A program made the translations under genes and the position numbers. 64,000 nt of DNA from an uncultured Candidatus Binatia bacterium (lineage in GTDB: Bacteria; Desulfobacterota; Binatia; UBA9968; JAJDTQ01): positions 2,368,001 to 2,432,000 of the forward strand of contig OZ243916.1 in assembly GCA_965213675.1 (NCBI GenBank), in the 5' to 3' direction. Each line of letters begins with the position of its first letter. The first letter of the stretch is position 1. The notes below the pieces were generated by a model. The model was not told the DNA's origin, searched no databases, and saw nothing but the letters and a program-made list of their open reading frames with translations. Below are positions 36,401-55,758 of the stretch, in pieces.

Positions 36401-37530
36401 ACGGAGAAATCTCTCACGTCGCCGTACAGGACGGTGCCCAAAGGATCCCGCTCTATGATCTCACTGCGGGCTGTTCCGCAATGGGCGGCAAGCCAGGCGG
36501 CCAAGCCGCGAAATGCCGAAACAATTTGACCATCATCGCCGGTCAACAAGGCAAGCACCCGTCGTACCGGGAGACCATCATCGACAAGACGCGAAAGGTG
36601 CCGCCCCGCCAGAAACTCGGCGACGTGCCTGTGGACGGGTCTGGCCAATCCGTCGATGACGTCGAATAGCTTGGTGCGCAGCGCGGCCAGCATAGTCTTC
36701 TGGTCTGGTTCCGGAATGTCCCGCAAGTCGATGTAACTGGCGGAATCCTCGGCAGTCATGGGTTGACGAAAACCCGTCAGGCCGGTCAGCAGTTGCATGG
36801 CGCACAGACGGTCTGCCGTGCGAAGCAACTCTGAATCGGCTCCTTGGGGAACCGCCTGCAGGTGCTCTTGATTGAGTTCGCGGATCAGTTTTACGCACGC
36901 TGCTTCGAATGTCCCTTTTCGCGTTGCTGGCCAGTTGCCATCGCCGACCGCATCCGCCAGCAACCTCAGGGTTTCAGGGTTCGACAGCAGCCCTCCAAGC
37001 CCGCGGTCCCTCGCTTCGTCAATGAAGCCGTCGATATCTGCGACGCCTTTCCCACCCAATATCTCGCGGACGTCATCTTCTGACAGAGGATCCAGGCGCA
37101 GGACCATGACCACGCCGTCGCGGGATACCGACTCAAGGCGCGTCCGGTCTGGCGCTCCGAACCAGTCCGCTTCCCGACAAGAGAGCCGGAACCGGGGCCG
37201 TCCCAGTCCGTCGAGTTTCCCTCGGATCACGTCAAGCGGAGTTCGCCCGTCTGTCTGTCCAGCCCGCGCCTCGTCCAGGCCGTCGATGAACAGCGTCTGC
37301 AGGCCCGCCCAGCGCTTGCAGTCCAGGCTCGTGAGGTCGCGAACGTCGCAAAACTCTTGCTGTCCGGCCTCGTGCTTGAACGCTTCTGTCTTGCCTGCGC
37401 CAGGCGCTGCCAACAGTACGTAGGCGCTGCAACCGCGAAAATCGGAAAGTGGCCGGGACAGGGTTTGACCTGTGACGCCGTCCTGATCCGCAACTACCGT
37501 ACAGGTGCGGTCAACGTAGCTGTCCATCAC
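33460..37530 (-). CDS. NACHT/STAND-like NTPase with C-terminal PD-(D/E)xK-like nuclease domain
   Basis: VLLAAPGAGKT (Walker A), LFIDGLDE (Walker B), RLSCR, HRHVAEFLAG; C-terminal E..CRD...RADI...EIK. Confidence 0.72.
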   Translation of the reverse strand: MMDSYVDRTCTVVADQDGVTGQTLSRPLSDFRGCSAYVLLAAPGAGKTEAFKHEAGQQEFCDVRDLTSLDCKRWAGLQTLFIDGLDEARAGQTDGRTPLDVIRGKLDGLGRPRFRLSCREADWFGAPDRTRLESVSRDGVVMVLRLDPLSEDDVREILGGKGVADIDGFIDEARDRGLGGLLSNPETLRLLADAVGDGNWPATRKGTFEAACVKLIRELNQEHLQAVPQGADSELLRTADRLCAMQLLTGLTGFRQPMTAEDSASYIDLRDIPEPDQKTMLAALRTKLFDVIDGLARPVHRHVAEFLAGRHLSRLVDDGLPVRRVLALLTGDDGQIVSAFRGLAAWLAAHCGTARSEIIERDPLGTVLYGDVRDFSVSDKRLLLSCLEQDAERDPRVFGAMHDLDSRWADLATPDMAETFREILTGAEGSMGKQTVALAVLRSLERGAIIPGLAPMLLDVVRDGGCWPAVRDAALEAFVWQSRNDDEAQENLKALLADVYEGVVPDPLDNLLGLLLKRLFPKLLPPAEVGRFLRERKSAVFASYAAFWNHDIIEQSTDSHQLADVLDSLIENVEELGETHDGAPASYWLRTIPGKLLVAYLEISSTVDHERLFVWLGLAAEEASHDARASIRAWLSDHSSSYKALVRVAADHSAGSHQLGDEVRRRLFLAVEPSDFGAWCLSQALETERNTAAATEFFLDNVIARQDGERIFCEVVEDRLAHDPSLVAKYKALQESRRRSISDIESEQSELEQRREAEAGQRRREWRDLVEDHESAIRENRAAPALLHRLASAYLGQFVDVQGADGRTRLRDLLGNDDLVDLTIHAFRASTARADLPEMAEIFRLADKQEHHFLMLPFLAGLDEIPSLRPGKAPLDEQGMRRALAFRFKAPDFWNQEPKWYRSVLRSRPDLVAEVLIRSVRADLRRGAKSGLGLHALGHDDDYQTVAEMVVVPLLKSFPTRQKLEQLHVLKALLHVASRHADKNALLRIVENKLKLQSMDASQEMYWICAGLLLKPALFVDRLRQELGGRGCERRVRHVAAFLYALDVPSLDVLDIPALELLIESLGNSYRPLSWPGNGSGMTGNTAAKDSAYTGVIVDSLLINALSSRPDRQATAALERLSNEDTLRPWQLKLRDALSRQRDVRREAYFSPPSVGQVLETLANQRPANAADLAALTADVLGSLEREIRDGNTSDWRQYWNVDSYNRAQDPKPEDACRDALLSDLKQRLAPKGVYAQPEGAYADDKRADICVLCNGFNVPAEIKKSSHDDLWKAIRGQLIEKYTRDSGAAGYGIYLVFWFGRDRCKRPPTGPAPETPSALRNQLIAVANLSPEERRKISVCVIDVSKPDSIAKAIG

Positions 37531-39263: not shown

Positions 39264-42200
39264 ATGGTCATGGTGAACGAAGGACGAGATGGGAACCGGG
39301 CGTTGGGCAGGAGGCATGGGGAGATAGCGGGGCGCGCGGAAAATAGTTTGGCTCAGGACTTGACAAGGCCTGAGTCAACCCATAATCGCCGGATCGCCGG
39401 ATCGCCGGATCGCCGGATCGCCGGATCGCCGGATCGCCGGATCGCCGGATCGCCGGATCGCCGGATCGCCGGATCGCCGGATCGCCGGATCGCCGGATCG
39501 CCGGATCGCCGGATCGCCGGATCGCCGGATCGCCGGATCGCCGGATCGCCGGATCGCCGGATCGCCGGATCGCCGGATCGCCGGATCGCCGGATCGCCGG
39601 ATCGCCGGATCGCCGGATCGCCGGATCGCCGGATCGCCGGATCGCGCTTGGTGCGTCTTCATGGTGGCGCCGTCTAGGGCGCTCCGCCTCCCGGCCTGAA
39701 TCTTCCGCATCCGCCCGCGGGCGTTCCGACACCCGCCGGCCCGCTTCCTCTTCCGACAGCTTCGCTCCCTCTCCCGCCCGCGCCGCGGCGGGCGCCCGTG
39801 CCGCCGCCCGCAATCTGCGGCGTGGCCTGCTGCCGGCCCTGCTTTGCCTGCCGCTGCTGTTCGGCCTTGCCGCCCCGGCCGCCGCACAGACGACACCGAC
39901 AATCTCCCCATCGACGCTGATCGAGGAAGGGAGCCGCGGTCGTCTCGGGATCGGTGTGACTATCAGCAATATCCCGTCGAGTTGGGTTGCTCCCATTACG
40001 CACTCGCTGACGACGACCGGCACCGGCACCGGTCACGCGACGCTCGCCTCAGGCGTTTGCCGCGATGTAGACACCTTAAATACCTCGTTAGACGCCTACG
40101 ACGTATGCGACGACGAAGGCACAGGCTACAGCTCGGGCTCGAACCTCTACACTCTCGCACTTAGGGCGAGCATCGATACTCACTCGGATTCGGGCGAGAC
40201 CTTCACGGTGACGCTGACGGACTCGTCGACGCCGCGGAATACCGTTTCGTTCACAATGACGATCAACGATCCGCCGGTGAGGATCGGGGTGTCGCTGCCC
40301 GACCAGGAGGGCGTATCCCGCGTCGGCGGCAATCAGCCCCATGAGGAGAGCACGGGCAGCGTTGTGTTCGACCTGAGCGCCGACGAGCCGCTGGCGAACG
40401 ATCTGACGGTGTGCGTGCGGGTGAGCGAGAGCGGCGGCAACCGGGTGACCTCGGGCAGGGGTATCCGGACCGCGACCCTGCTGGCCAGCGGCGTCAGCAA
40501 CGGGTCGGGCAGCTACACGGTCAACTGGACCGACACCGCCGCCGACGACCCGGACAGCACCGTCATCGTCCGGGTAGTGCCGCCGGAGGAGGCGGGCTGC
40601 TCGGCGACCGACGGCAGCTACGGGGTATCCGGTGACGACCCCTTGGATACGATTCTCATCCAGGACGACGAGGACACCACGGTCTCGCTCACGAGTTCGG
40701 ACAGGACCATGACCGAGGGCGACGCCTCGGACACGGCGACCCTGACGGTCTCGCTGGATCGCCGGCTTTATGGCGGAGAGACAATCGGCGTGCCGATCGC
40801 GCTGGCGTCGACCACCGGGGCGCGGCTGCCGGGGAGCGTGGACGGCGGCAGCACCGCCAACCACGACTTCACGGTCGCGGCCGCGGCCGGGAGCGGGCAC
40901 AGCGGGGTGACGCTGGCGAACGCATCGACGGCCAACCCGCGGGTGGTCTTCACCGGCCACGACAGCAACACGGTGCAGACGGCGACGGTAACGCTGACCC
41001 CGGTGGCGAACCGCGACGACGGCGACGCGGCCCATGAGACGATCACCGCGACGCTGAGCTCGCTCGGCCTGGTTGACACGACGGTAAGCGGCGGCGTGGC
41101 GGCGCATGGGACGAACAACGCGGCGACCCTGACGCTGGCGGACGACGAGGCCGCGCCGCCGCCGGTGACATGCTCCGCCCAGAACCCCATCTTCAATGAT
41201 ACCAGCCTTCGCATCCTCGAGACCGGCGAAACGACCTATTGCGTGCGCCTGACGACCGCCCCGTCCGGCGGTGACACCACCGTCACCATCGGCAGGATTG
41301 GCGGGGGCGCGACCGTCAGTCCCGCGTCGCTCACGTTCACGTCATCGAATTACGAAACACCCCAGCAGGTAACGGTGACCGGCATGGATGAGCCCGGTTC
41401 GCATCGGAATCGCACGACGCAGTTGACCCACACGGCCAGCGGCGGCGGCTATTCGAGCCAGAACCTGGGCCGTGTCCGGGTAGAGGTGGACGACGCGCCC
41501 GAGGTCGAGGCGTATTGGTACATCAAGGGCGGCGCGGGCGGCGTGCGGATCCGGCGACCGCATACGATAACGTCAACGCCCGGGCTGACGCCGTGGCAGA
41601 ACGCGGCACCCGGCGACAGGATATCCTATGCCGTGCGCCTGTCGAACCGCCCGGAGCCGGGCGGCACGGTGACCGTGATGGCGACGGTGCCTTCGGACAA
41701 GCGGAACCTCGTCGGCCTGTCGCTGACCAAGGACCGCGCCGCGCAAGACACGGTGACGGTGGAGTTCAAGGACCGCAGTCCCGGCGCAGGCACGGGCTGC
41801 AGCAACTGGTTCGGCCATCAAGCGCATCAATACTTCGACAGCCACGGCAACACGCGGACAGTGTCGGGCCGGCAGCCGAGCGAGAGCTACGACGGCACGG
41901 CGGACACGCCCTGGGAGTGCTGGCGCATGATTTATGTGGTCCGCAAGGACGCCTCGCGGAACATCGACGACACCTGCGCCGACATCACCCACACCGCCAC
42001 AGGCGGCGGCGTGCGCAAGGTCACGGTCGATACGATCCGCGCCCATGTAAGGAACCCGTCGCGCAACAGGCGGGGGTCAAGCGGTTACAACACCCAATGC
42101 CGCAACCTGACCGGCAACACGCAAGCGGCACCCGCGACGGCCGCCCCGGCGCCCACCGAGGCGGTGGCCAACCTGCAGGTGACGGCGGTGGACGACGCCA

Positions 42201-45200
42201 GCGCCAGCGTCACCTGGGACGCGGTGGAGCATGCCACCTCCTATGACGTGTCGTGGAGTGCCGAGAGCGGCGACTCGCTGAACGCTTCCGCCGGTGACTT
42301 GCCCGGCGTGACAGGCACCACGACCACCATCGACCACGGCGCCTCGGTGCCGATGACACTGACGGTCACGGTGACGCCGGAATATGTCGACAAGAACGGC
42401 GACACGCAGCAATTGGACAGCCTCGCCGGCACGGCAACCCTGGCGGTAGGGCCGGGCAGCGACGCGCTGAGCGCCAGCGCGCAGAGCACCGACAGCCAGG
42501 CGCCGGCCTGCGTCTCCGACGCCCTGCTGGCCGACGCCCGGAAGGCTGCGGGCGAGACCTGGCGGACGTCGCCGGGCCATGTCGAGCGCTGGAGCCGGGT
42601 GCTTGCCGCCTTCGGGGAGAGCAACGCCTGGAGCAACAACCCGATGACCATCGCCGAGGCGCAGGCGCAGGCGGACCGCGGCCTGAAGCGCTGGGCGCCG
42701 GTGGCGCCGGCGCTGGAATGCCTGGAGAAGGAGCCGGCGCAGGCGAAGGCGCAAGTAGAGGCGCAACAGGCGGTTCCCGCGATCACCGTAACCGCGGGAG
42801 CGGGGGTGACGGAAGGCACGGCGGCGGGCTTCACGCTCAAGGCCGATCCGGCGCCGGCGGAAGAACTCGCGGTGACGGTGGCGGTGGCCCAGACCGGCGC
42901 CATCGCGGATGCCTCGGCGCTCGGCGAGCGCATTGTGACGATCCCGGCCGGGAAGGCGGAGGCGGCCTTCACGGTGGCGACGCTGGCCGATGAGACCGAC
43001 GAGCCGGCGGGCGCCGTCACGGCGACGGTGAGCGACGGCCCCGGCTATACGGTGGACGACCAGGGCAAGAGCGCAAGCGTGGCGGTGGCGGACGACGACG
43101 CCACCGCGGTAGTGCTGACGGCGCCGGATGGCGACCTGCCCGAGGCGTCGGGCTCCAAGACGCTGACGCTGACGCTCGGGCGGGCGCTGGTGGAGGGCGA
43201 GAGCCTGTCGGTGCCGCTGGCGCTTGCCGGCACGGCCACGCTCGGCTCCGACTACACGCTGGCCGCGCCGGAGACGGCGCCCGCGGGCGTGACCTATACC
43301 CACCTTGGCGGTACCGACCCGAAGAACCCGCCGGAGGTGACCTTCGCCGGCGCCGCGGGGCGCAAGTCGGCGACAGCGGCGACGCTGGTGCTGGCGACGG
43401 TGGCGGACAGCGTGGCCGAGGGCGAGCGGGAGACGGTGACGGTGAAGCCGGGCACGCCGGTCGCCACCGGCCTCGGCGGCGGGGCGGCGGCCTCGGGCGC
43501 GGCCGGCTTCGCCATCCTGGAGCCGCCGCCGGAGATCGCGATCGCGGCGAAGACCGGGACCGTGGCAGAGGGCGCGGATGCCGCCTTCACCCTGACCGCG
43601 AGCCGGGCCCCCGGCGCGGACCTGACGGTCAACCTCACGGTCTCGGAGCCAGACGGCAGCGACTTCGTGGCAGCCGAGCATGAAGGGACCACCACGGCGA
43701 CCATGCCGAAGGGGGAGACCGAGGCCACCTTTACGGTGCCGACGGTGAACGATGTGGCGGACGAGCCCGGCGGGACGGTGACCGCGACCCTTGCCGGGGA
43801 CGGCGACAAGGGACTGCGCTACACGGTGGCAGCGGCGCCGGACAATGCGGCCTCCGTGAAGGTGACCGACGACGATGCGGCGGCGACAGCCCCCACCTTC
43901 TCGGTGGGCGACGAGACCGCCAACGAGGATGTCGGGTTGATGTATTTCACGGTGCGGCTCGACCGGGCCGTGCAGCAGGCGGTGAAGGTGACCTTCACGG
44001 CGCGCGAGGCGAGCCCGGTCTCGGCCCGGCAGGGCGAGGACTGGTTCTGGTGGTGGCCGAACGGCATCGCGCTCACCTTCCATCCGGGCCAGACCGAGAA
44101 GCGGATGTGGGTCTACGTCTACAACGACAATCACGACGAGGACCCGGAGACCTTCGAGGTGGCGCTGTCGAACCCGACGGGGGGCACGGCCATCGGCGAC
44201 GGGGTTGCGGTGGGCACCATCGTCAACAACGACCCGATGCCCAAGGCGTGGCTGAGCCGGTTCGGCCGCACGGTGGCGCAGCAGGCGCTGGACGGCATCG
44301 CGAGCCGGATGAGGGCGCCGCGGGAGGCGGGCGTGCAGGGCACCCTGGCGGGACAGGCGCTGCCGGACGGCAGCACCGCTTCCCAGGAAACCGGGTCCGG
44401 CCCGGGATGGCAGACCGCGGCCCATGACCACGCGGCGCCCGGAGCCCGGGCCACGGGCTTTACCGGCGGCGTCCAGGACGGCGCCGAGCCAGGGACCGCT
44501 TCAACATGGAGAGCCCTGAGCTTGCGGGAACTCATGCTCCAGAGCCGCTTCACCGCCACCGGCGGCAAGGACGCCAAGGGCGGCAGCCTGGCCTTCTGGG
44601 GGCGGGCCGCGCAGGCGCACTTCGACGGCAGGGAGGGAACCTTCTCCCTTGACGGCGACACCACCACCGGCATGCTCGGGGCGGACTACGCCCGGAACCG
44701 CTGGATGGCCGGCCTCGCCCTCACCCACAGCGAGGGGGAGGGCGCCTATGCGGACACGGACACGGCCCCTGAACCCTGCGCCGAAGCCGGCGCGGACCAC
44801 ATGAGCGACGATGCCAGTAAGGTTCTGTGCGAAGGCGCCGTGCGCGAGGGCGACGGCAGCCTCGACGCCTCGCTGACCGCGGCCATACCCTACGCCTCTT
44901 TCCAGGCCACCGAGCGGCTGAAGCTCTGGGGCGCGGCAGGCTACGGCGCCGGCGCGGTGACCCTCAAGCCGGAGGTCGGCGGCGTGTTCAAGTCGGACGT
45001 TTCCTGGACCATGGCGGCGTTGGGCTTCCGTGGGAACCTGTGGCCCCCGCAGAAGCAACGCTCCGGGCCGGCGCTGGCGCTTGAGTCGGACGCGCTCTGG
45101 GCGCGCACCTCTTCGGAGAAGACCCGGGACCTCGCGGCCTCGGACTCCGATGTGACCCGGCTCAGGCTCGGTCTGGAGGGAAGCTGGAAGATCGCCCTGG

Positions 45201-45790
45201 ACCAAAACGGCCATCTGACGCCCAGGCTCGAAGTGGGCGCGCGCCATGACGGCGGCGATGCCGAGACCGGCACGGGCATCGAACTCGGCGGCGGCATTGC
45301 CTGGAGCGACCCCGCCCTGGGCCTCCGCCTCGATGTCGAGGGCCGCACCCTGCTGGCCCACGGGTCCGATGATCTGGAGGACCGGGGCTTTGCCGCCTCC
45401 CTCGCCTACAACCCCGACCCGGCAACCACTCTCGGCCCCTCCCTGACTCTTCGTCAGGACTGGGGCGGACAGGCCAAAGGCGGCATCGACGCCCTGTTCG
45501 CCCCCGACCCCCTGGACACCCGCGGCGGCGCGGGCGGTACCGCCGAGAGCCGCTGGCTGGCCGAAGCCGCCTACGGCTTCCCGGTCCTCGACCGCCGCTT
45601 CGCCGCCAGCCCCCATCTAGGCTTCGGCTTCGCCGCCGGCACCCGCGACTACAGCCTGGGCTGGCGCTTCAACCCCCTGGCACGCAACAACGCCCCCGAT
45701 CTCCAACTCGGCCTAAACGCCACCCGAAGGGACGCCGCCCACTCAAAACCCGAACACATCCTCCGCTTCAAGGTCGCCCTCAACTGGTGA
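39264..45790 (+). CDS. Giant Calx-beta/FN3-like surface protein with C-terminal autotransporter-like beta-barrel; frameshifted at an octamer repeat in this assembly
   Basis: ATG 39264 with GGAGG RBS; leader homologous to the paralog start at 54727. The body frame is open from 39386 to 45790 and includes the signal peptide LRRGLLPALLCLPLLFGLAAPAAA/Q. Calx-beta-like repeats, RHDGGDAETG, terminal W. Confidence 0.8.
39385..39645 (+). repeat. Simple sequence repeat (ATCGCCGG)x32 plus ATCGC
   Basis: Counted directly: 39385-39640 is 256 nt, i.e. 32 perfect units. Confidence 0.97.
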
Positions 45791-45908
45791 CCTCCAAAAT
45801 GGCTTGGCACCCGCAACGCGTCCCGTCGGACTTGGCTGCGAGCACCCCGTGTTCGTGCGGCTACGGCCATTGAGGCGCTGTCGGTCAGGTCGATCACCTC
45901 CACGTCCA
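45701..45908 (+). repeat. Direct repeat copy 1 (3' end of surface-protein gene plus downstream DNA)
   Basis: Matches 55570-55758 (CTCCAACTCGGCCT...TTCAAGGTCGCCCTCAACTGGTGACCTC...GGTCGATCACCTCCACGTCCA). Confidence 0.9.
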
Positions 45909-46057
45909 TAGCGGGCGGCGCCCACGGGACGAACCGCCACGCCCATGCCGGCTGCGCGATGGCCTCCGCCCGCTCACGCGGACGCTCCCAGTAGTGGTTC
46001 AGGTCCGCCAGACGACGGGACGGTTCACTCGGTTCATTCCAGTATCGGATACGGGTC

Positions 46058-46492
46058 TCATCGCGGCTCGGCCGTCCATGGATCGATGGTCTCAACGCCG
46101 GTATTGCGGAACTCACCCGTGTTTCGCGTCACGATAGAGAGAGCCCGACATGCTGCGGCTCCAGCGAGAAAGGCGTCCGGAACATGATCGTCGAGCGGCT
46201 CACCGCGTCGGCGCTTTTCTTCCATGATCCGGGCACACGCCTCGGCATCGGCCATGGACCAGTCGAGGATGCGGTCCTCGAACAACTCGTCGAGAAGATC
46301 GTGGAACCGATCGGCGAGACTGTCCCGACGCCGGCCGGGAGCGAGACGTCCGATGCCGTTGAGGATCTCCCAAACGGTGATGGACGCGAGGCCGATGCCC
46401 TCGGCGGCGATGGAATCGAGAAAGGCGGCAACGCGGGGTTCAGGTCGCGGCCGCATCATTTCGGAGACGACGTTCGTGTCAATTAGATACAT
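46058..46492 (-). CDS. PIN-domain toxin (VapC/FitB family)
   Basis: MYLIDTNVVSEMMRP.P, ITVWEI..G, D.FLA..A, IVTRN..EF, IDPW. Confidence 0.9.
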   Translation of the reverse strand: MYLIDTNVVSEMMRPRPEPRVAAFLDSIAAEGIGLASITVWEILNGIGRLAPGRRRDSLADRFHDLLDELFEDRILDWSMADAEACARIMEEKRRRGEPLDDHVPDAFLAGAAACRALSIVTRNTGEFRNTGVETIDPWTAEPR

Positions 46493-46739
46493 CAAATTCT
46501 GAAGGCGATTCTGCCCTGTTTTACCCGTCGTCGCATGCCGCTCCTGATGCGATGTTGTCCTATAAGAGGTTGTATTGACGCGGTTATTCCTCATCTCTAC
46601 ACTGTCCTCCGCCTTGCCAACCCAGCGATGAGGCCGTCACAGCCTACGTCCACTGTTGCCGTCACCATGCTACCTCTGTGCTTACGGTTCTGCTACCGGA
46701 ATTCATCGCGCAGACGCCGCCTCGAAGGACCGCCGCACC

Positions 46740-46894
46740 ATGGCCGAACGCCAGTTCCGCACCCTCACCAAGCGCACCGTGGACCGTCTCTCGGTCAACG
46801 GCAAGGACGCCGTCTTCTGGGACAACGACCTTCCGGGCTTCGGCGTTCGAGTCTACCCCTCGGGCAGGAAGGTCTTCGTCGTCCAGACGCGCGC
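46740..46894 (+). pseudogene. Tyrosine integrase N-terminal arm-DNA-binding fragment
   Basis: MAERQFRTLTKRTVDRL...FWDNDLPGFGVRVYPSGRKVFVVQTR; catalytic domain absent. Confidence 0.8.
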
Positions 46895-47240
46895 CTTCGG
46901 CGACCAAGCTTTCGCGGATCGTGGCGTTGATTTCGTCGCGCAGCGCCCGCGTCGGGGCAATTACCCCGGTCGCTTCGCGCTGCAGCTCGTGCGGCAGGTT
47001 CAGCCACTGGCGCGCGGTCTCGGCCCCGATATCGCCATACTCCACTTGCCGGATGTTGTCGCCGAGCCTGGCGAACGCGCCCTTCACGTCGCCGGTGAGG
47101 CCGCCCGGATCGCCGCCTTCAACACGGCATCGCGCTGGCGGAGAATGTCGTCCATCATCGCCGTCTGCATCCCAGCGGCCCTGAGTTGCGCGAACGGCTT
47201 CGCGGCTGCGTTCCGCTTCGCGTCACCCGCCGCTGCACCA
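46887..47240 (-). pseudogene. MobF (TrwC/TraI) relaxase-helicase internal fragment, frameshifted
   Basis: KPFAQLRAAGMQTAMMDDILRQRD, followed in another frame by ARQWL.L...REATGVIAPTRALRDEINATIRESL. Confidence 0.7.
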
Positions 47241-47436
47241 TGCTGCGCATGAGTGCATCGGCGACTGCGCCGATCCCGGCGCACTTGCCCCGGACCGCGA
47301 TCCGGGACGGCCGCTCGCATCCCTCGCGGCACTCGTGCAGGCGCTCTTGCGGAGCCCGCCCGCACTTCGCCCGGCACTGTCTCGCGCAACCGCGCCGCAC
47401 TGCCAGCCGCTCAAGCGCCGCGGCGGCTCCATCGCG

Positions 47437-47718
47437 CCCATGTCGCGGCTTCAGGGATTCTTCCTTCTTCTCCGGATCGTTCGCCAGGATCACGCGGCGA
47501 CAGCACGAAAGGACTCCGTAGTAGACCAACAAGGGCTTCACGCTCATCTCCGAGCCGGCCGCGTTCCTGAAGTACTCTCGGCCATGCGCGAAGCATGCGT
47601 TGATCTGCCCTACCTTCGCGGAACTTGCGCTCCTCCCATGGACATTCCGATACCACTTCGCAACGAAATCGTGCGACTCGAAGCGCGAGATCGCCTTCCA
47701 ATGGATGCCTTCGACCAT
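47437..47718 (-). pseudogene. YaaC-like protein N-terminal fragment
   Basis: QINACF..GREYF.NA....SVKPLLVYYG...HG. Confidence 0.55.
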
Positions 47719-47900
47719 CCTCCCCAATCCCGTCGCACTCTCATCCACTCGCTCTGGAATGGTGGCTCGTTGTCGCCATCCTGCCTGCTTGCTGCCCACG
47801 GCGAAGCCAGTTTCTCGTGTTCCTCAGGGCGTCGGGAACCTGCGTCGCCACCGGCATCGCGCAACCGAGCTCCACGCCTGTTGCACACACTCCCGATCCC

Positions 47901-48595
47901 TTAGTTCCGGATTCCGCTCCGTCGGCTGACCCGATGGAGCCGATGCTCGAAATACCGCCGGAACGCCTCGTTCTCGGGCCACGCCCCCGGATCGGCCCAG
48001 ATCGCCCCCAGCCGTCCCACCAGCCCGGCGATCCAGTCCGCCGCCTGGATGGTCTGGTAGCGGTGGCTCTCCAGATGGAAGGGGGGTTCGATGAGATGGC
48101 GCCGCCGCTGGCTCCGCCCATACATGCTCTTGGCGGCTTCGGTCAGAAGCGCCGCACGCTGCTCATGCTCGTCGAGAATCAGGACGAACGCTTCCGGCGG
48201 ATCGCAATCTTCGCCGCAATGGCCGTCGATCCGCTTGATCGCCTCCAGGAACACCCTCGCATAGAGCCGGTTCGGGTTATGCCCACCCGGCGCCGCGGTC
48301 TTCCTCACACGGACATAGAACACGAAGCCGCCAAGCCGCTCGATCTTGTTGAACAGCCGGTTGGTGAACCTTCGGAGCTCGGGATACCGGGTCACGTTGG
48401 TCAGCGTGTAGAGGCTTGCTCCCTTCTTCTCCCACAGCGCGGGGTGCTCTCCCCGCCGTTCGATCTCGAAGGCGAGCAGCTCGCACTTGCGCTGGAAGAA
48501 CCAGGTCCCGAAGCCGCGCACCGCTTCCGCCGGAAGCACGAAGCCCGCCAGCCCGAACACCGGGCTCTCCCTGTATCTGGGGTGCTGGCGGCCGA
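47901..48595 (-). pseudogene. DUF3800-like protein lacking its N-terminus
   Basis: SPVFGLAGFV, WEKKG, LILDE, ESHRYQTIQAADWIA; 5' end replaced by relaxase sequence. Confidence 0.65.
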
Positions 48596-48735
48596 CGTAG
48601 AACGACTTCTGCGTGGTGAGATGGGGGTGGTTGGCTTCCATGGCGGCGATCACGGTATCGACCGTGCGGCCCTGGAAGGCATGCACGGTCGACGCCCAGG
48701 CCCGGTCGAGGTGGCGGAACTGCGGGTCGTCGTCA
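48596..48735 (-). pseudogene. TrwC/TraI helicase C-terminal fragment
   Basis: DPQFRHLDRAWASTVHAFQGRTVDTVIAAMEANHPHLTTQKSFYV. Confidence 0.72.
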
Positions 48736-48869
48736 AGCGCGTCGAGGCGCTCACCGCCGAAGGCCGGCTCCGCCTCGCCTCCGCACATCCCGACTACCCG
48801 CCCTACGAGTGCCGGGCCGACGAGGTCCACATCGTCGGCAAGGTGCTGTGGAAGGTCACCCGCGCCTGA
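48727..48869 (+). pseudogene. S24 peptidase (phage-repressor-like) C-terminal fragment
   Basis: VVKRVE....GRLRLAS.HPDYPPYE....EVHIVGKVLW. Confidence 0.62.
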
Positions 48870-48934
48870 CGCGTGGCGCGGCCCATGCCCCCCGCCGGCG
48901 CGGCGGGAGGCAATGGCAATGACGCCGCCGCGCC

Positions 48935-51900
48935 TCACCACCGCGCGTTGACTTCGAACCCGACGCTGTGCTCCGGCATGGCCGTGTCGCTCTCCCTGCG
49001 GGTCGCCTTCAGCCCGAAGGAGACATCGGGCGCGTTGGCGTTCGCCGCCGTGGTAAGGCGCCAGCCGAGGCTGTAGTCCCGCGCATCGGTGGCGAGGCCC
49101 AGCCCCATATGCGGGCTGCCGGTGAAGCGCCCCGAGAAGGCCGGGAAGCCCCAGGCCGCTTCCGCCGTCCAGCGGGAGGCGGCCTCCCCTCCGCCCATCC
49201 GGTCCGCCAGCGGGTCGGACGCGAACAGCGCGTCGAGCCCGCCCTTGGCCTGTCCGCCCCAGTCCTGGGTCAGCGTCAGCGAGGGACCGCGCGCGGTCGC
49301 CGGGTCGGGATCGAAGGCCAGCGAGGCCGCGAAGCCCCGATCCTCCAGATCGTCCGAGCCGTGCGCGACCAGCGTGCGGCCCGACAGGTCGAGCGACAGG
49401 CCGAGCGCCGGATCGACCCAGGCGAGCCCGCCGCCGAGTTCCACCCCGAAGCCGGTCTCGGCATCGCCCCCGTCGTGGCGCGCGCCTATTTCCAGCTTGG
49501 GTGTGAGACTGCCCCCGCCCTCGGTGGCGATGCGCCAGCTCCCCTCCAGGCCGAGCCGGAGACGGGTCACGTCGGACTCCGACGCCGCAAGCTCGTGCGT
49601 CTTCTCCGAGCTCGTCCGCGCCCACAAGGCATCCGAGGTCAGCGCCAGCGCAAGGCCGCTCCCTTCCCTCGACAGGGAAACAAGGTCGTTGCGAACCCCC
49701 GCCGCCGCCATCGTCCAGGCGATGTCGGAGCTGAGCGAGCCGCCCACCTCCGGCTTCAGCGTGACCTCGCCGGTGCCATGGCCCGCCGCGCCCCAGAGCT
49801 TCAGATGCTCGGACGCCTGGATCGCGGCATAGGGAACCGCCGCCGTCAGCGACGCATCCACCTTGCCGTCGCCTTCGCGGACGGCGCCGGCGCACAGATG
49901 CGCCATCGTGGCGGGGTCCATGCCCTCGCCAACATCCGGACAGTGCTGCGGCCCCGATTCCCTGTCGGCATAGCCGCCTTCCCCGCTGCTCCGCATCAGC
50001 GCCATGCCGACCAGCCAGTTGCCGCGCGCATAGTCCGCGCCCAGCATCGCCGAGGTCGCCTCGCCGTCGAGCGAGAACGTCCCCTCCCGTCCGTCGAAGC
50101 TCGACTGCGCCGCCCGGCCCCAGAAGGCCAGGCTGCCGCCCATGCCGTCCTTCTCCCCGGTCGCCGTGAAGCTGCTGCCCAGCAGAGCCTCGAGCCCGGT
50201 CATGGTGTACGAGCCCGCGCCGCCTGCCCCGGACACCGATCCGGTGGCGAAGCCATGAGCGTCATGGCCGATCGCGCCGCCGCCCCAACCGTCGGCGGAA
50301 GCGCCGAAGGCGCGGGCCACGTGGGAGCGTGCCGGCACGTCCTTGCCGGCAAGGCTGCCTGGTGCGGCATTGTCGTTCGCCGCCCCGGACCCGTCAGGGC
50401 TGCCGAAGCCGAGCGCCTGTCCGGCGATCGTGCCCTGCACCCCGGCGCCGCGCGAGGCCGCGATGCGCCCGGCTATGCCGTCCAGCGCCTGCTCCGCCGC
50501 CGTGCGACCGAAGCGCGCCAGCCACGCCGCCGGCATCGGGTCCGAGTTGGTGATGGTGCCCACCGCGACCCCGTCCGCAATCGATACCGACACCCCGGGC
50601 GGACCGTTCACGGCCGCGTCGAACAGCACCATCTCGAAGGTCTCCGGACCCTCGTCATGGCTGTCGTTGTAGAGGCGGACGTGGATCAGCGTTTCCGTCT
50701 GCCCCGGCCTGAACCGGGCCCGCAGCCGCCAGGACCGCTTCCACGCCAGGTAGTCCTGGCCCGCCACGGCCGACACCGGCGTCGAATCCCGCGTCGCGTA
50801 GTAGACATGGACCGGCCAGTCCACCGGCTCGCTCAACGTCACCTTGAAATTCCCCGTTATTCCGTTCTCCTTGAGCGTGGCATCGGCAATCGAGATCGTC
50901 GGACCCGAGGACGCCGCATCGTTGTCGGACACCGCCACCGTGGCCGCATTGTCCGGGGCGGCGGCCAGTGTGTAGCCGGCGCCAATGCCCAGGGTGGCGG
51001 TGATCGAGCCGTCCGGCTCGTCCGCGCCGTCGTCCACCGTGGCGACCTCCACGTCCACGCTGCCTGTGACCGGGACGGTGACCGTCCTCGACCCGGTCTC
51101 GCCCGAGGCGGCGAAATCGCCGCTCTGGCCGACGGTCAGCGTTACGTCGAGCGGTGCGACCGGCACCGGGCTCGCCGAGACCGTGAAGGAGGCCGACGTG
51201 CCTTCCGTCACCCCGCTGCCGGCGGCGATGCTCACCACCGGCTCGTCATTGTCGCGCACCGCCACCGCGGCGCTGCCCTTGCCCGTGGCCACGGTGTAGC
51301 CCGTGCCCGTGCCGAGGGTGACGCTCACCGACCCATCGGCCTCGTCCGCTGTGTCGTCCACCGTGGCCACCGAGAGTGCGACGCTGGTAGCCCCTGCTGC
51401 CAGTGTCACCGTCCGGCTGCCCGCGCCGGGGGCGTCCAGATACTCGCCGCTCTGGGCGACGGTCCAGGCAATCGTCAGGTCGGAATGCGGCGCCGGATCG
51501 GCCGTGACCGTGAAGGTGGCATTGCCGCCCTCGTCCACGGCGGAGCCCGCCGAAAGGCTGAGTTCGGGCGTGGCGGGTGTTACCGGCTGGACCTCAGCCT
51601 GTTCCGGCTGTTCCTCCTGCGGCGGGTTCGCCAGGCATTCCAGCGCCGGCGGCACGGGCGCCCAGCGCTTGAGGCCGCGATCCGCCTGCGCCCGCGCCTC
51701 GGCGACAGTCATCGGGTTGTTGCTGTAGGCGTTGCTCACCCCGAAGGCGGCAAGCACCCGGCTCCAGCGCTCGACATGGCCCGGCGAAGTCCGCCAGGTC
51801 TCGCTCGCAGCCGCCTGGGCGTCGGCAAGCAGGGCGTCGGAGACGCAGGCCGGAGCCTGGCTGTCGGCGCCTTGCGCGCTGGCGCTCAGCGCGTCGCCGC

Positions 51901-54727
51901 CCGGCCCCACGGCAAGCGTCGCCGTGGCGGCCAGCGCGTCGAGTTGCTGCACCGCGCCATTGCCGTCGATGTATTCCGGCGTCACCGTGACCGTCAGCGT
52001 CATCGCTTCTTGCGCATCATGCCGGATGGTGGCCGTAGTGCCGGTCACGCTCTCGACGCCGGAAACGGCGGTCTCGGAGCCGTTGGCATCCCATGACACG
52101 TCATAGGAGGTGGCATGTGCCACCGCGTCCCAGGTGGCGCTGGCGCTGGCGTCGTCCACCGCCGTCACCTGCAGGTTGGAGACCGCCGTGTCGGGCGCCT
52201 GGACCGCCGGCGCGTTGTTGCCCACGGGGCATAGCCCGTTATTGATCCGCACGCATTTGCTGCCCGGAGCCAGCCGGAACGGACGGCCGGTGGCCGTCAC
52301 CTTGAAGGTCACCGTGCCCGCCCCGGCGTCGTGCCGGATACTGATGGGCACCGTGAACTCGGAAAAGCCCCTATTAAGTGACTTGTAGCCCGACTTGCCC
52401 AGACCCTGCCTGCGGTTGTCATCGACCACCCCGCCGGTGTCCTCGACCTCCCACTTGACGTAGAGGCCGGTCGGCAGGGCGCCATTGACCGAAGTGATCG
52501 TGAATATCGCGCGGTACCGGCGGTCGCGCTTCGACGTGTCGTCATACCCCGACACCTTCAGAACGGGCAGGTCGTCCTTGATGGTGATGACCGTGCTGAT
52601 GGTCTCGTTGGCAATGCGGGTCGAGTCCGGAATCTCCAGCAGGGCCGTGGTCTCCTTGCCCGACACGGTGCTCCGCTGCAGCCGGATTTTCACCGACTCG
52701 TCCGGCTCGTCGCTGCTGCCGTCGTCGAACAGCGTCAGATCGAGGTAGGTGCCGAGTTGCCCCTTCGGCAGCGTCGCGGGGTGGCAGCCCGTCGTCGTGA
52801 CCTTCGTGCCGTCCTGGCCGACCAGCGTGTAGTCGTCGCCAAGCGTCGCCGAACCGCTCACACAGTACTCGAAATGCGCATCGACCTGCAGCGGCCGGTT
52901 GGGTATCGAGGAATGCGCAGGGGCCAGAGCGATCTTGATCCTGCGCCCGCTATCGACCCCGTCCCTCAGCACCGTCCCGCTCTCGTCGACCTTGAGCAGG
53001 GGCGTCGCTTCGTCGTCCTGGATGTATATCGTGATCCGGTTCGGCGAGCCCACCGCGTGGGTGCCCGTGCCCACCATCTCCAGGACCACCGTCTCGGTTC
53101 CCTCGATCAGTGTGTCCTCGATGACCGTGATCGGCAGCGACGCAAGCGTCTTCCCCTTCGCCAGCGTCATCGTGCCCCGGTTGTTGTTCCGGTTGTAGCC
53201 GCCGCGCAGGCGGTAGTCGGTGCCGTAGGTCGCCGTGCTCCCCCCGTCCTCATTCCCGGGTACCACCTGGTAGGTTACCGTGTTATCCCAGCCAGCCTGC
53301 GCCGAGAACGGGATGCCGACATCCTGATCGAGGGACGGTCTGCCTTCTCTCACGCCCGGTTTGCCGGCCCAGGTGCCGAAGGCAAGCGGCTGCTGGTGAT
53401 AATCGTCGTCATCGATCACCAGGGTCTGGCTTCTGAACACGCTGTCGATCCCGTAGGGTGAAGGGAGCGGCTTTACCGGGTTCGGATTCAGGGTGATTCT
53501 GACCGTTTCCTGCCCCGATATAACCAGCCGCTCCTGGCCGTCGATCCACATCGGCACCTGCTCGTGGTGGTTGTCGCCAAGCACCTGGATGCGGAACCTC
53601 TTCAGTTGCTGGTTGGCGGCGATGGACGAGTCGACGCAGCCACTGTTTCTGGTCTGCCAGGCGCTCCCCACCCGTTCCTGTATCAGATAATCGTCTTGCT
53701 CGGCATTGCCGCCGGTGCGTCGCCTGGCACTGCCGGAGAAGCACAGGCGGAAAGGCAGGGGAGACGAAGAGAGCTGTTCGGTCTTGACCTGGAACTCCAC
53801 ATTCTTCGGCGCTGAATCCGTCTCCTTCACGCATGTGTACGTTTTACTGCTGCCTCCACCAACAGAGCAGGTATCCTTGCCCCGGTCCAGCGAGAGCGAG
53901 AGAAACTGGTTTGCGGCCTTGATCGTGAATGTGGCGGAGAGGTCTGGAGGGAATGTGGCGTCGTTAATCTGCCCAAACCGAAGCAAGCCACTCCGAGTGC
54001 CTCCGGCGACAGTCACCGTCACCGGATCATCTGCCCTGATTAGCGAGCCGTGGTAAGCGAGGGTGATCTGCGCGGAGCGATGACTAAGGCTTCTGCCATG
54101 GGGGTGACCCGGCCGCTCTCGCCGGAGCAGCTTGCCGCTTGCGATCGTCAATCCCCGAGGGGCGCCCGACAATGTGATCAGGGCAAGACCTGCTGCGCTC
54201 AACCTGGCTTCGCCGTCCCTGAAGGGGATGGCTCCCTGGTCGTCCGGGTGAATATACTTCTGTCTGAAGGAGTCGGAGAGTTCAGTGGTACCGCCGCGGC
54301 CAGCTCCAAAAAACGTGGCGTTTTTCGGAATCAGTGTGATCGTTGCCCCGTGCAGAAAATGTGCCTGTATCTCGGTGGGAATGGTCTCCAGGTACGGCGC
54401 AGTCTGTGCCTGTGCACCAGTGGCGAGACTGAGCAGCACAGCGGCGAGACTGAACCGCAAATGGTGGATGGCAAAGAAATCCGCCAAAGCGCGGGCGGGA
54501 GACAGGCTGGAGCCGCCGGTGGCAGAAGGCTCAGGCCGGGAGGCTGGGTGCCCCGGGCGGCCAGCCATGCGAGCGCGCTCATGCCGGCGATCCGGCGATA
54601 TACCAAGGGGAGTCCCCTCAACCCTTGTCAACCCCTGCGCGAAACAATTTTTCGCGCGCCCGGCGGTGGCCGCAAGCGCTGCGCCCAGCGCGCGGATCGC
54701 ATGTTGTCCTTCCTTGAATATGGTCAT
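48935..54727 (-). CDS. Giant Calx-beta/FN3-like surface protein with autotransporter-like barrel (intact paralog)
   Basis: Start MTIFKEG (GGAG RBS); extended leader then signal peptide LRFSLAAVLLSLATGAQA/Q; Calx-beta repeats; RHDGGDAETG; ends NARW. Confidence 0.85.
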   Translation of the reverse strand: MTIFKEGQHAIRALGAALAATAGRAKNCFAQGLTRVEGTPLGISPDRRHERARMAGRPGHPASRPEPSATGGSSLSPARALADFFAIHHLRFSLAAVLLSLATGAQAQTAPYLETIPTEIQAHFLHGATITLIPKNATFFGAGRGGTTELSDSFRQKYIHPDDQGAIPFRDGEARLSAAGLALITLSGAPRGLTIASGKLLRRERPGHPHGRSLSHRSAQITLAYHGSLIRADDPVTVTVAGGTRSGLLRFGQINDATFPPDLSATFTIKAANQFLSLSLDRGKDTCSVGGGSSKTYTCVKETDSAPKNVEFQVKTEQLSSSPLPFRLCFSGSARRRTGGNAEQDDYLIQERVGSAWQTRNSGCVDSSIAANQQLKRFRIQVLGDNHHEQVPMWIDGQERLVISGQETVRITLNPNPVKPLPSPYGIDSVFRSQTLVIDDDDYHQQPLAFGTWAGKPGVREGRPSLDQDVGIPFSAQAGWDNTVTYQVVPGNEDGGSTATYGTDYRLRGGYNRNNNRGTMTLAKGKTLASLPITVIEDTLIEGTETVVLEMVGTGTHAVGSPNRITIYIQDDEATPLLKVDESGTVLRDGVDSGRRIKIALAPAHSSIPNRPLQVDAHFEYCVSGSATLGDDYTLVGQDGTKVTTTGCHPATLPKGQLGTYLDLTLFDDGSSDEPDESVKIRLQRSTVSGKETTALLEIPDSTRIANETISTVITIKDDLPVLKVSGYDDTSKRDRRYRAIFTITSVNGALPTGLYVKWEVEDTGGVVDDNRRQGLGKSGYKSLNRGFSEFTVPISIRHDAGAGTVTFKVTATGRPFRLAPGSKCVRINNGLCPVGNNAPAVQAPDTAVSNLQVTAVDDASASATWDAVAHATSYDVSWDANGSETAVSGVESVTGTTATIRHDAQEAMTLTVTVTPEYIDGNGAVQQLDALAATATLAVGPGGDALSASAQGADSQAPACVSDALLADAQAAASETWRTSPGHVERWSRVLAAFGVSNAYSNNPMTVAEARAQADRGLKRWAPVPPALECLANPPQEEQPEQAEVQPVTPATPELSLSAGSAVDEGGNATFTVTADPAPHSDLTIAWTVAQSGEYLDAPGAGSRTVTLAAGATSVALSVATVDDTADEADGSVSVTLGTGTGYTVATGKGSAAVAVRDNDEPVVSIAAGSGVTEGTSASFTVSASPVPVAPLDVTLTVGQSGDFAASGETGSRTVTVPVTGSVDVEVATVDDGADEPDGSITATLGIGAGYTLAAAPDNAATVAVSDNDAASSGPTISIADATLKENGITGNFKVTLSEPVDWPVHVYYATRDSTPVSAVAGQDYLAWKRSWRLRARFRPGQTETLIHVRLYNDSHDEGPETFEMVLFDAAVNGPPGVSVSIADGVAVGTITNSDPMPAAWLARFGRTAAEQALDGIAGRIAASRGAGVQGTIAGQALGFGSPDGSGAANDNAAPGSLAGKDVPARSHVARAFGASADGWGGGAIGHDAHGFATGSVSGAGGAGSYTMTGLEALLGSSFTATGEKDGMGGSLAFWGRAAQSSFDGREGTFSLDGEATSAMLGADYARGNWLVGMALMRSSGEGGYADRESGPQHCPDVGEGMDPATMAHLCAGAVREGDGKVDASLTAAVPYAAIQASEHLKLWGAAGHGTGEVTLKPEVGGSLSSDIAWTMAAAGVRNDLVSLSREGSGLALALTSDALWARTSSEKTHELAASESDVTRLRLGLEGSWRIATEGGGSLTPKLEIGARHDGGDAETGFGVELGGGLAWVDPALGLSLDLSGRTLVAHGSDDLEDRGFAASLAFDPDPATARGPSLTLTQDWGGQAKGGLDALFASDPLADRMGGGEAASRWTAEAAWGFPAFSGRFTGSPHMGLGLATDARDYSLGWRLTTAANANAPDVSFGLKATRRESDTAMPEHSVGFEVNARW

Positions 54728-55020
54728 CGCGATCTCTCCGAACCTGTCGCCCGGCTTGCCGGTGCGCACAGTGCACAAACCTGCCGAGCGTCACTATTTT
54801 TCCATTCGTACCGTATCCGAACACGGAGCGAAGGCAAGTCAGCCGCGCGTTTGTAAAGTCAGCGCGCACTTGCATCCACACACAACGACGGCGACGCCCT
54901 TGCCGGTATCGGCCGCCACAGAGCCGCCGACCGCAGCACCGATATCGTGCATGACGATGCAGGCCGCAGCGCCGTCACCATCGACCGAAATCCCCGCTGA
55001 CGCGGTAGCCGTCCAGCGTG

Positions 55021-55053
55021 CGTGTCAATCAGCCATGCAAGTGGCGCGGTCAA
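55021..55053 (-). pseudogene. 5' stub of PIN toxin (MTAPLAWLIDT) coupled to the antitoxin
   Basis: TTG overlaps the antitoxin stop; LIDT motif, after which PIN homology ends exactly at the 16-bp repeat. Confidence 0.65.
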
Positions 55054-55307
55054 TCCCTGTCCTCTTCGGAGAACGACAGCGGCCGGTATCCGTAACGCGC
55101 CGGTGGCGGCAGTTCGATCCCGTACTCCTCACCGAAATACCGCGCGAACGCTTCGGACGGCTTCGGACGGCTTTCGGACTTCGTGCGTTTTTCGTGAATC
55201 AACCGGCGTACGAACTCTTCCATAGACATGCCGACTTCGCGGGCCTCGCGCTTCAGCCAGGACTTGTCCCGGGAATCGATGTCTCGGACGGTGATGCTGG
55301 AGTTCAT
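55050..55307 (-). CDS. FitA-like ribbon-helix-helix antitoxin
   Basis: SITVRDID......L...A...G.SMEE.VR.LI; FGEEYGIEL; AGGAG RBS. Confidence 0.82.
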   Translation of the reverse strand: MNSSITVRDIDSRDKSWLKREAREVGMSMEEFVRRLIHEKRTKSESRPKPSEAFARYFGEEYGIELPPPARYGYRPLSFSEEDRD

Positions 55308-55569
55308 GTCAACGTCTCCTGTTCAGCCTATACGCCATCAAATTATGCTATCAAGGAATTTGGGTCAAGAGGTTGTAGCCTCCCGCGCGTTGGAGCCGGA
55401 GAAGGCGCTTCTTCAACTGCAAGCGCAGGGCACTTCGAGGCCCAATCGGATCTCGGTCACCATCCTGATGCCCCACCCTGGCGAGTCTCGGATCAGTGTG
55501 CACGTAAACCAGAATTTGGTTACAAGGGTCATCGGGGGCGGGCGCCCCGGGTTTCGGTAACAGGTCAAA

Positions 55570-55758
55570 CTCCAACTCGGCCTCAAGGCCACCCGAAGGG
55601 AGGCCGCCCACTCAAAACCCGAACACATCCTCCGCTTCAAGGTCGCCCTCAACTGGTGACCTCGAAAAAGGCTTGGCCAGACGCCGACCCGTCGGACTTG
55701 CCTGCGGCGGCTACGGCCATTGAGGTGCCGTCGGTCAGGTCGATCACCTCCACGTCCA
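55570..55758 (+). repeat. Direct repeat copy 2 (orphan 3' end of surface-protein gene)
   Basis: Encodes LQLGLKATRREAAHSKPEHILRFKVALNW*, as at 45701-45790. Confidence 0.9.

Follow-up and report, generated by a model that had tools for sequence, protein, structure and literature searches.

The toxin gene of a fitAB-type toxin-antitoxin module lies in two parts, 8.5 kb apart on the same strand, in a 64,000-nucleotide (nt) stretch of the genome of an uncultured Candidatus Binatia bacterium (contig OZ243916.1), and the question that this locus raises is what divided the gene and what became of its halves. The whole 64,000-nt stretch is referred to here as the window, and all coordinates follow its numbering; the insert was analyzed together with the fitAB halves as positions 46058-55307, both halves being on the minus strand. 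An earlier note on this DNA, made from its letters alone, proposed that an integrative element had entered the toxin gene fitB at codons for its conserved Ile-Asp-Thr motif and had provided the severed part with a replacement start. We conclude that a member of an integrative-element family very probably did insert site-specifically into the 5′ end of fitB, and later decayed.

Three features make up the split locus, and the positions that the earlier note assigned to them and to the core repeat at the junctions all hold:

46058-46492, minus strand: fitB′ toxin open reading frame (ORF), 144 amino acids (aa), PIN domain (PF01850)
55021-55053, minus strand: fitB 5′ stub of 11 codons, MTAPLAWLIDT, ending in the core ATTGACACG (55021-55029)
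55050-55307, minus strand: fitA-like antitoxin gene, 85 aa, ribbon-helix-helix by Pfam, intact, with no toxin gene behind it now

The antitoxin matches Pfam PF22513 (FitA-like_RHH; E 7.8e-07, 29.4 bits against a cut-off of 27), and the stop codon TGA of its gene is overlapped by the TTG start of the stub. The stub reads TTG ACC GCG CCA CTT GCA TGG CTG ATT GAC ACG, and past these 11 codons the frame is no longer PIN-like. The toxin ORF, fitB′, matches PF01850 over profile positions 1-117 of 120 (E 6.2e-12) and the NCBIfam VapC models only under their cut-offs, and it contains Asp5 and Glu42, which we take to be catalytic residues. It opens ATG TAT CTA ATT GAC ACG AAC GTC (MYLIDT); positions 46058-46483 are the original fitB from the Ile-Asp-Thr codons onward, and 46484-46492 (ATG TAT CTA) are derived from the element. 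The junctions share the core CGTGTCAAT (plus strand) at 46475-46483 and 55021-55029, with flanks that extend the match to 14/16 by hand count; this repeat is real, and the continuous fitAB of relatives runs through both halves.

The ancestral form of the locus is found in other genomes. A six-frame search for the toxin in 60 relatives (genomes are denoted by G numbers and loci by L numbers) gave matches at 92-94% identity in three genomes of the same genus (G020, G025 and G026) and at 76% in G005 and G013; each of the five has a FitA homolog immediately before the toxin. The uninterrupted gene of the three same-genus genomes reads MTAPLAWLIDTNVVSEMMRP..., from the DNA ATG ACC GCG CCA TTG GCA TGG CTG ATT GAC ACG AAC GTC GTC TCC GAA ATG ATG (MTAPLAWLIDTNVVSEMM), and their FitA is 86-87% identical to that of the window. 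The toxin start in the uninterrupted relatives, an ATG where the stub in the window has TTG, overlaps the TGA stop of the antitoxin gene. These relatives have an adjacent, co-oriented operon with the antitoxin first; the window has a gap of 8.5 kb in its place. When compared by BLAST with 20-kb stretches, window positions 46020-46486 and 55017-55382 abut in the subject with a 16-nt overlap and nothing else aligns, and the two pieces are therefore halves of one fitAB module of about 830 nt, whose neighborhood differs from genome to genome. A metagenome contig (X5, record 17, 1671 nt) joins 46017-46474 directly to 55021-55386 at 98.7% identity, with 4 and 7 mismatches in the two parts (11 in 824 nt), and a loose end at 46480 together with a contig fitting from 55021 in run X6 suggests another uninterrupted variant. 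The earlier note had named a native MYLIDT start behind a different antitoxin as the finding that would count against it; the closest homologs instead begin MTAPLAWLIDT and are preceded by FitA. A direct repeat at both junctions and an uninterrupted target elsewhere – the pattern by which an integrative element is recognized – are both present, and the three same-genus genomes and the metagenome contig bear out the proposal that such an element split fitB.

The nature of the element is indicated by the DNA that adjoins the toxin remainder:

46484-46739, no strand assigned: integrase-proximal arm, the attP-derived side, with CCGTAAGC and AATACAAC motifs and the replacement codons ATG TAT CTA
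46740-46901, plus strand: integrase (IntA) stub, first 54 codons only, 78% identical to the IntA of G003

The stub matches residues 1-54 of the 390-aa G003 IntA at this identity with no match beyond, and the DNA match stops at about 46900. The G003 element has genes for IntA (390 aa), IntB (413 aa) and a TrwC relaxase/helicase (1045 aa) consecutively on one strand, and both integrases have the Pfam domains Phage_integrase, Arm-DNA-bind_3 and SAM-like. A PIN_3 gene starts 231 nt upstream of this IntA, divergently, and reads GTG CTT CTA ATC GAC ACC AAC GTC; G026 and G024 have the same geometry with two other PIN genes.

A scan for IntA over 185,579 species genomes gave 80 loci, which were scored if they had at least 700 nt of upstream sequence. 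Of 34 loci with IntA identity of at least 64%, 31 could be scored, and 19/31 have an ORF matching Pfam PIN or PIN_3 at the DTN codons; the junction lies about 230-380 nt from the integrase start, the two genes are divergent, and the PIN profile begins at the junction. Below 64% identity (46 loci, 41 scorable) a PIN ORF stands at the junction in 0/41. Integrase homologs beside PIN genes, which the earlier note had expected, are thus common among the close homologs, and IntB follows IntA in 14 of the 19 PIN-linked loci.

The 253-nt arm of the window aligns over its full length with the arms of seven loci from other genomes, most columns being conserved, and the alignment extends to TTTGATGTATCTAATNGAYAC (CTAATNGAYAC) with immediate divergence past it. 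The same arm end at all seven supports the claim that the element supplied ATG TAT CTA. A scan of metagenomes for the arm-end motif gave six hits: three are the conserved arm joined to new PIN genes, one lies in a glucan-branching-enzyme-like ORF, and two are AT-rich PIN genes with seemingly native MYLIDTN starts. The 23 PIN bodies now available (from the window, the 19 loci and the three metagenome junctions) form 23 clusters at 90% identity, 15 at 50% and five at 30%. That a single arm is joined at the same codons to so many unrelated PIN genes means that the element targets the DNA motif and that the toxin is of host origin, not cargo. The proposed use of the IDT(N) codons as attachment site is well supported, in that the same arm adjoins 22 other diverse PIN genes there and orphan antitoxins with stubs lie at the far ends.

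These far ends were located with a FitA family query, run in four and then five genomes. In G024 a FitA-like gene followed by MIVLDTN, with a stop after 5 codons, lies 112 kb from the toxin remainder; the corresponding distances are 86 kb in G062 and 117 kb in G063, and in G026 the far end is on another contig. An orphan FitA with a 20-aa stub, also on another contig, was taken as the far end of the L133 element in G061. The stubs behind the orphan FitA-like antitoxins of G024, G026, G062 and G063 are 10-39 aa long, and G003 carries an uninterrupted ortholog of the gene that is split in G024. No far end was found within 40 kb of the integrase in G024 or G003, and the FitA family query found none in G003 (a PIN_3 target), G064 or G065, where the antitoxins may be of other families. 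The distal ends of G024, G026, G062 and G063 share CCGTAAGC...AAGCGGATTG about 100 nt inside; in G061 CCGTAAGC is present and the rest of the motif is absent. CCGTAAGC is found in the proximal arm too, and motifs of this type are plausibly arm-type integrase sites.

The paired ends also delimit the exchange. In four pairs (G024, G026, G062 and G063) GACAC is followed by A in the stub junction and by C or G in the toxin junction, and the flanks also differ 2-3 nt ahead of GACAC. Since the junction pairs differ on both sides of the shared stretch, the exchange is bounded to 7-8 bp, which is the size of a tyrosine-recombinase overlap region.

The restored start recurs across the family. An in-frame ATG, GTG or TTG within six codons before the Asp codon, with no intervening stop, was found by script at 18/20 junctions – and at 19/20 after correction by eye of L125 (ATG AGG TGT CTC ATG GAC), for which the script had picked the wrong motif – compared with 5/20 and 3/20 in the other two frames, although the 20 junctions are not fully independent and the same bases are possibly constrained as integrase core-binding sites. 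The arms fall in several sequence lineages (ATG TAT CTA AT, ATG AGT TKT CTT CT, GTG ATT ACT AGT TT and GTG ATC GCA AT), and the start codon is therefore conserved across diverged arms. All 23 PIN remainders are open, for at least 123 aa. In the window, the ratio of non-synonymous to synonymous substitution rates (dN/dS) of fitB′ against intact relatives is 0.09-0.14, similar to that of intact pairs among themselves; fitB′ appears free of decay by this measure, which cannot isolate the time since insertion.

We propose the following course of events. A large integrative element – with tandem tyrosine integrases IntA and IntB as the family hallmark, a TrwC relaxase (in G003 and as fragments in the window) and, in three elements, a coupling protein – would recombine into the 5′ end of fitB, a PIN gene of VapC type. 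IntA, IntB or both would catalyze the reaction, with crossover in an overlap of about 7 bp, NNGACAC, within the active-site codons (L)(I)DTN. The attP site would mimic the start of a PIN gene and is expected to be related to the CTAATNGACAC sequence. On integration the toxin would keep an in-frame start beside the integrase gene (ATG TAT CTA ATT GAC, or MYLID, in the window), a codon presumably maintained by selection, and the antitoxin gene with a short, dead toxin stub would end up at the other extremity of the element. The copy in the window has since decayed: IntA is cut after codon 54, IntB is lost, the relaxase pieces are inverted and scattered, and about 620 nt were apparently deleted at the distal end, at endpoints that both share CGCA in a related element. 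Unrelated genes now occupy the insert. The split is therefore frozen, with fitA on its own promoter and fitB′ as an intact ORF. As for the transfer functions, a PF02534 coupling-protein match lies inside each of the three elements that were measured (G024, G062 and G063), and PF03135 (VirB4) has no match in these three host genomes, other VirB4-type families not having been searched.

The decay is evident from what else the insert contains:

46885-47200, minus strand: TrwC-type relaxase gene fragment, inverted relative to the integrase stub, matching G003 TrwC
47155-47799, minus strand: YaaC-like gene fragment (PF14175, E 4.6e-12, profile positions 12-91 of 307 only)
47901-48800, minus strand: DUF3800 gene (PF12686, E 3e-10) with a scrap of a relaxase/helicase C-terminus (UvrD_C_2; PF13538, E 2.4e-4) in its N-terminal part
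48935-54778, minus strand: gene for a 1947-aa Calx-beta repeat protein (Pfam Calx-beta, E 1.4e-12)
54991-55022, minus strand: 32-nt internal piece of an excisionase-type (HTH_17) gene, fused straight to the core (29/32 nt to L198:2377-2408, E 2e-07)

The relaxase fragment (316 nt) aligns at 71% identity, over 319 nt, with the G003 relaxase gene (L071:14416-14728), which by Pfam is TrwC plus AAA_30, and 48593-48713 is a 70% match to DNA about 20-40 kb inside the G024 element. Relaxase fragments are the only transfer genes in the window. The 48935-54778 gene is an inverted paralog of a gene outside the insert (39956-45790), with inverted repeats 74-86% identical to 42133-45544, and it could be either element cargo or a later arrival. 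The 32-nt match was obtained by short-word BLAST against the far end of the G061 element, where L198:2377-2408 lies within a 72-aa HTH_17 gene (PF12728, E 3.9e-11) about 620 nt in from the distal end; the window lacks both the distal arm and the 5′ half of this gene. The G061 distal junction reads GACACGCATATCG and its excisionase stretch is preceded by CCCCGCA, and the window has GACACGCA followed by the same stretch, as if a deletion of about 620 nt between two CGCA tetranucleotides had removed the arm together with that half of the gene. An alignment (MAFFT) of the distal side of the window with four distal arms was forced and uninformative.

The window copy is a fossil, with no integrase, excisionase or distal arm and with scrambled relaxase pieces. 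The integrase start that the earlier note placed inside the left end is there (ATG at 46740, 256 nt in), but the insert is a scrambled remnant and not an intact element: codons 1-54 of the integrase gene remain, as compared with a 390-aa IntA in relatives. The accompanying suggestion that excision would rebuild fitAB fails for this copy, which can no longer excise because its integrase, its distal arm and all but 32 nt of its excisionase gene are gone.

Several observations weigh against the reading of a PIN-targeting integrative element. The 64% identity threshold that separates 19/31 from 0/41 was set after the data had been seen, and the counts are not fully independent, since related metagenome-assembled genomes from similar habitats supplied many of the loci. 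Eleven of the 31 close homologs adjoin something other than a PIN gene, namely an SDR, an ABC ATPase, an FAA hydrolase, a response regulator and seven ORFs with no Pfam match, and a twelfth, in G013, is a truncated IntA beside an intact fitAB. The flanks of the X5 contig outside the fitAB module have no match in the window, which makes it an uninterrupted allele and not proof of an empty site here, and an X1 contig over 46269-46484 runs on for 285 nt that do not fit the window arm at 90% identity or more. The distal side of the window (54779-55020) has no homolog in the 60 relatives, its link to the element being the single 32-nt match. No circular form or attP was seen for any member of the family, no search for circular junctions having been made. 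Upstream of fitB′, no promoter-like site and no clear Shine-Dalgarno sequence was found. The closest relatives of the window genome, G012 and G009, are without the whole 33418-55771 block and are hence uninformative as to an empty site at this locus.

The junctions outside PIN genes are probably secondary sites. The same arm adjoins a short-chain dehydrogenase at L117, an ABC ATPase at L126, a response-regulator ORF at L134 and a glucan-branching-enzyme-like ORF at L222, and the non-PIN junctions are still core-like (e.g. ATG GAC TCC, ATC GAT ACC AAT and ATT GAC ACT). Two further arrangements were seen at fitAB itself. At L120 (G013:C1:2932038-2938569) an IntA homolog without its first 26 codons and without its arm is divergent from an intact fitAB that is 76% identical to that of the window, and at L024 (G005) an intact fitAB is preceded, in the same orientation, by an N-terminal integrase fragment. 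Neither fits simple integration, and both may reflect later rearrangements at the same hot spot. Genomes of the genus also hold up to 23 IntA-like matches (in G020). Most belong to a subfamily of 55-60% identity that has no PIN association and stand in tandem pairs, sometimes as inverted pairs a few kb apart; this is a multi-copy tandem-recombinase element.

Three other explanations of the locus were weighed. That the junctions are false joins, assembled from repeated integrase and adhesin-like sequences, we judge very improbable: repeats abound here (integrase N-termini, relaxase pieces, paralogous giant genes and a 209-bp repeat) and the short-read contigs of public runs break at repeats, but the window lies within a 3.97-Mb contig and its left junction structure is shared with at least 22 other assemblies. 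Contigs X1 and X2 match 54993-55537 and 54993-55599, respectively, with no mismatch, covering the stub and 28 nt of the element side, and the stub junction consequently exists outside this assembly; that element-side overlap is 3 nt under the bridging criterion, and the X1 and X2 contigs shown do not bridge the left junction.

It is scarcely credible that the 144-aa toxin is a cargo gene with a native MYLIDT start and the stub behind fitA the end of an unrelated truncated fitB, the 14/16 repeat being no more than conserved LIDTN codons. Conserved codons do give some DNA similarity between any two PIN genes, native MYLIDTN PIN genes do exist (one, L221, has a Shine-Dalgarno-like GGGAGG before its start), and the truncated IntA beside intact fitAB in G013 could be read in the same way. 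Yet in its closest homologs (92-94%) the toxin body comes immediately after MTAPLAWL and a FitA 86-87% identical to that of the window, the 98.7% contig joins the halves exactly at 46474|55021, matching stubs stand behind cognate antitoxins at the far ends, and the same arm is joined to 23 PIN bodies, some less than 30% identical, as a single cargo gene cannot be.

A transposon or insertion sequence with a coincidental likeness to PIN-adjacent integrases is scarcely credible either, for although the 9-bp direct repeat at the junctions is perfect and 9 bp is the duplication size made by several transposon families, neither end has terminal inverted repeats by eye, no transposase family was matched among the insert ORFs scanned, the repeat match is longer than 9 bp (14/16), about 250 nt of the left end is homologous to the arms of seven elements that end at the same codons of different PIN genes, and four element pairs differ around the shared 7-8 bp in a manner that fits attP × attB exchange and not simple duplication.

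Integration of a PIN-targeting element into fitB could have a further aspect, although we think it unlikely: that the family co-opts the host toxin-antitoxin module into its own control circuit. Selection would then keep the start codon of attP, placing a live toxin beside the integrase promoter region, and the stress-sensitive, autoregulated antitoxin promoter would read into the distal end, where the first co-oriented gene would be an excisionase, as in G061. Loss of antitoxin under stress would lead to excision and transfer, and excision would reunite the pair without a scar; with the motif in dozens of PIN genes per genome and on plasmids, many landing sites would be available in several bacterial classes. 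Read-through from the antitoxin promoter into an excisionase gene was rejected as a general feature, being found in G061 only, with other genes or insertion sequences at the other four distal ends.

The region upstream of the window fitA (55308-55382) is conserved among relatives (L002-L004) and contains two direct repeats, TTGATAGCA and TTGATGGCR, which could be a candidate antitoxin operator. A promoter scan upstream of fitA reported nothing; a TTGACC/CATAAT pair can be made out by eye, with a spacer of 15 nt that falls outside the spacing rule of the scan.

Several known systems resemble parts of this one. Islands with P4-type integrases use a conserved landing sequence in tRNA genes, and a carried copy of the displaced gene end keeps the target intact; IntA and IntB share with these integrases the Arm-DNA-bind_3, SAM-like and catalytic architecture. 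Here the target is instead a protein-coding toxin gene, the 5′ rather than the 3′ end is restored, and the identity is only 7-9 bp with partial flanks. SXT/R391 is a conjugative element with a tyrosine integrase that enters the 5′ end of prfC and gives it a new start and, reportedly, a promoter, the hybrid gene remaining functional. It has a single, essential target gene, a single integrase and a MOBH relaxase, in contrast to the TrwC (MOBF-type) relaxase here. The uninterrupted relatives resemble FitAB of Neisseria gonorrhoeae and the type II VapBC pairs in that a ribbon-helix-helix antitoxin gene overlaps the PIN toxin gene that follows; unlike in those systems, the pair is split, by 8.5 kb here and by 86-117 kb in intact elements, and the N-terminus of the toxin is foreign.

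The closest likeness is to the dusA-associated integrases, whose islands, according to Farrugia et al. 2015 (PMC4482086), enter dusA at its 5′ end and substitute sequence of their own for that end, maybe keeping the protein functional. The same account describes a tyrosine integrase family that is defined by the 5′ end of a protein-coding gene, with the integrase gene adjoining the junction, and related integrases that are found less often in paralogous or unrelated genes (PMC4482086). The present family likewise has a recurrent target position (19/31 versus 0/41, plus three metagenome junctions) and an in-frame replacement 5′ end (19/20). It differs from dusA as described there in that the target is a short motif of a multi-copy, mobile PIN superfamily, comprising at least five groups below 30% identity, that insertion parts two genes of one operon with mutually neutralizing products, and that there are two tandem integrases. 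A neisserial integrative and conjugative element has an attP that exploits DNA uptake sequences, which are short and present in many copies per genome (PMC7371117); by that description the sequence it targets is a non-coding uptake signal, in contrast to the coding catalytic motif here, and fitAB is cargo there and not the target. GInts (PMC5385486), which are defined by four genes, also have more than one tyrosine recombinase gene at one element end, and SEs are described as having several tandem tyrosine recombinases, four shared coding sequences, strand-biased circularization and no empty site (PMC9345347). By these descriptions the present family appears to differ from both, with two Arm-domain integrases followed by a relaxase and with uninterrupted target alleles.

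The literature searched contained no description of attachment sites in PIN or VapC genes, although TIGER/Islander supplements and subscription journals, which were outside its scope, may list such cases. Targeting of 5′ ends is already known; what appears to be new here is a catalytic-motif target in mobile toxin genes, with the toxin parted from its antitoxin and both ORFs left intact.

Integrative elements are usually catalogued by their landing sites, which are tRNA genes and a handful of housekeeping genes, and among the toxins of bacterial toxin-antitoxin systems the PIN family is the most numerous. If the proposed targeting is correct, an orphan antitoxin with a stub and a PIN gene beside divergent tandem integrases would be a signature that delimits large mobile elements, including those in uncultured genomes, and would account for a share of the 'orphan' toxins and antitoxins in annotation. 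It would also pose the question of whether parting an intact toxin from its antitoxin benefits the element. A natural integrase with a short, many-copy target could be of interest in genome engineering. The window itself is of modest biology, as the frozen scar of one such insertion, and the general phenomenon is the interesting part.

The split locus is part of a larger variable region. Relative to the closest relatives, G012 and G009, positions 33418-55771 form a variable island between an RND (AcrB-type) pump gene and a conserved RNase_H_2-family gene; at the syntenic site of this 22.3-kb block G009 has 157 bp, whereas G012 has 2.1 kb of other DNA, and there is no tRNA gene near the block. 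It also contains a 1356-aa ORF with no Pfam match (33460-37530, minus strand) and a DUF4143 ATPase gene. A direct repeat of 209 bp, at 45701-45908 and 55570-55758, brackets fitB′...fitA; its copies are 86% identical with gaps, the long blocks being 95-96%, and it comprises the last ~90 nt of the giant Calx-beta gene at 39956-45790 and the region downstream. The right copy, a remnant of a gene end, is not preceded by a gene, and more copies are found elsewhere in the genome and in G012. Campbell-type insertion of a fitAB-bearing segment, or duplication followed by deletion, are possible origins.

The Calx-beta paralogs at 39956-45790 (plus strand) and 48935-54778 (minus strand) encode proteins of about 1945 aa, their DNA is 74-86% identical over the 3′ two-thirds, and their C-termini (...NW and ...RW) had no Pfam match in the scans. 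The summed depth of X1 and X2 contigs on the 48935-54778 gene is very high, so genes related to it must be common in those samples. At 39385-39645, about 310 nt before the 1944-aa Calx-beta gene starts, the octamer ATCGCCGG is repeated perfectly in tandem (32.6 copies, 100% identity); this array could be a length-variable switch for that gene.

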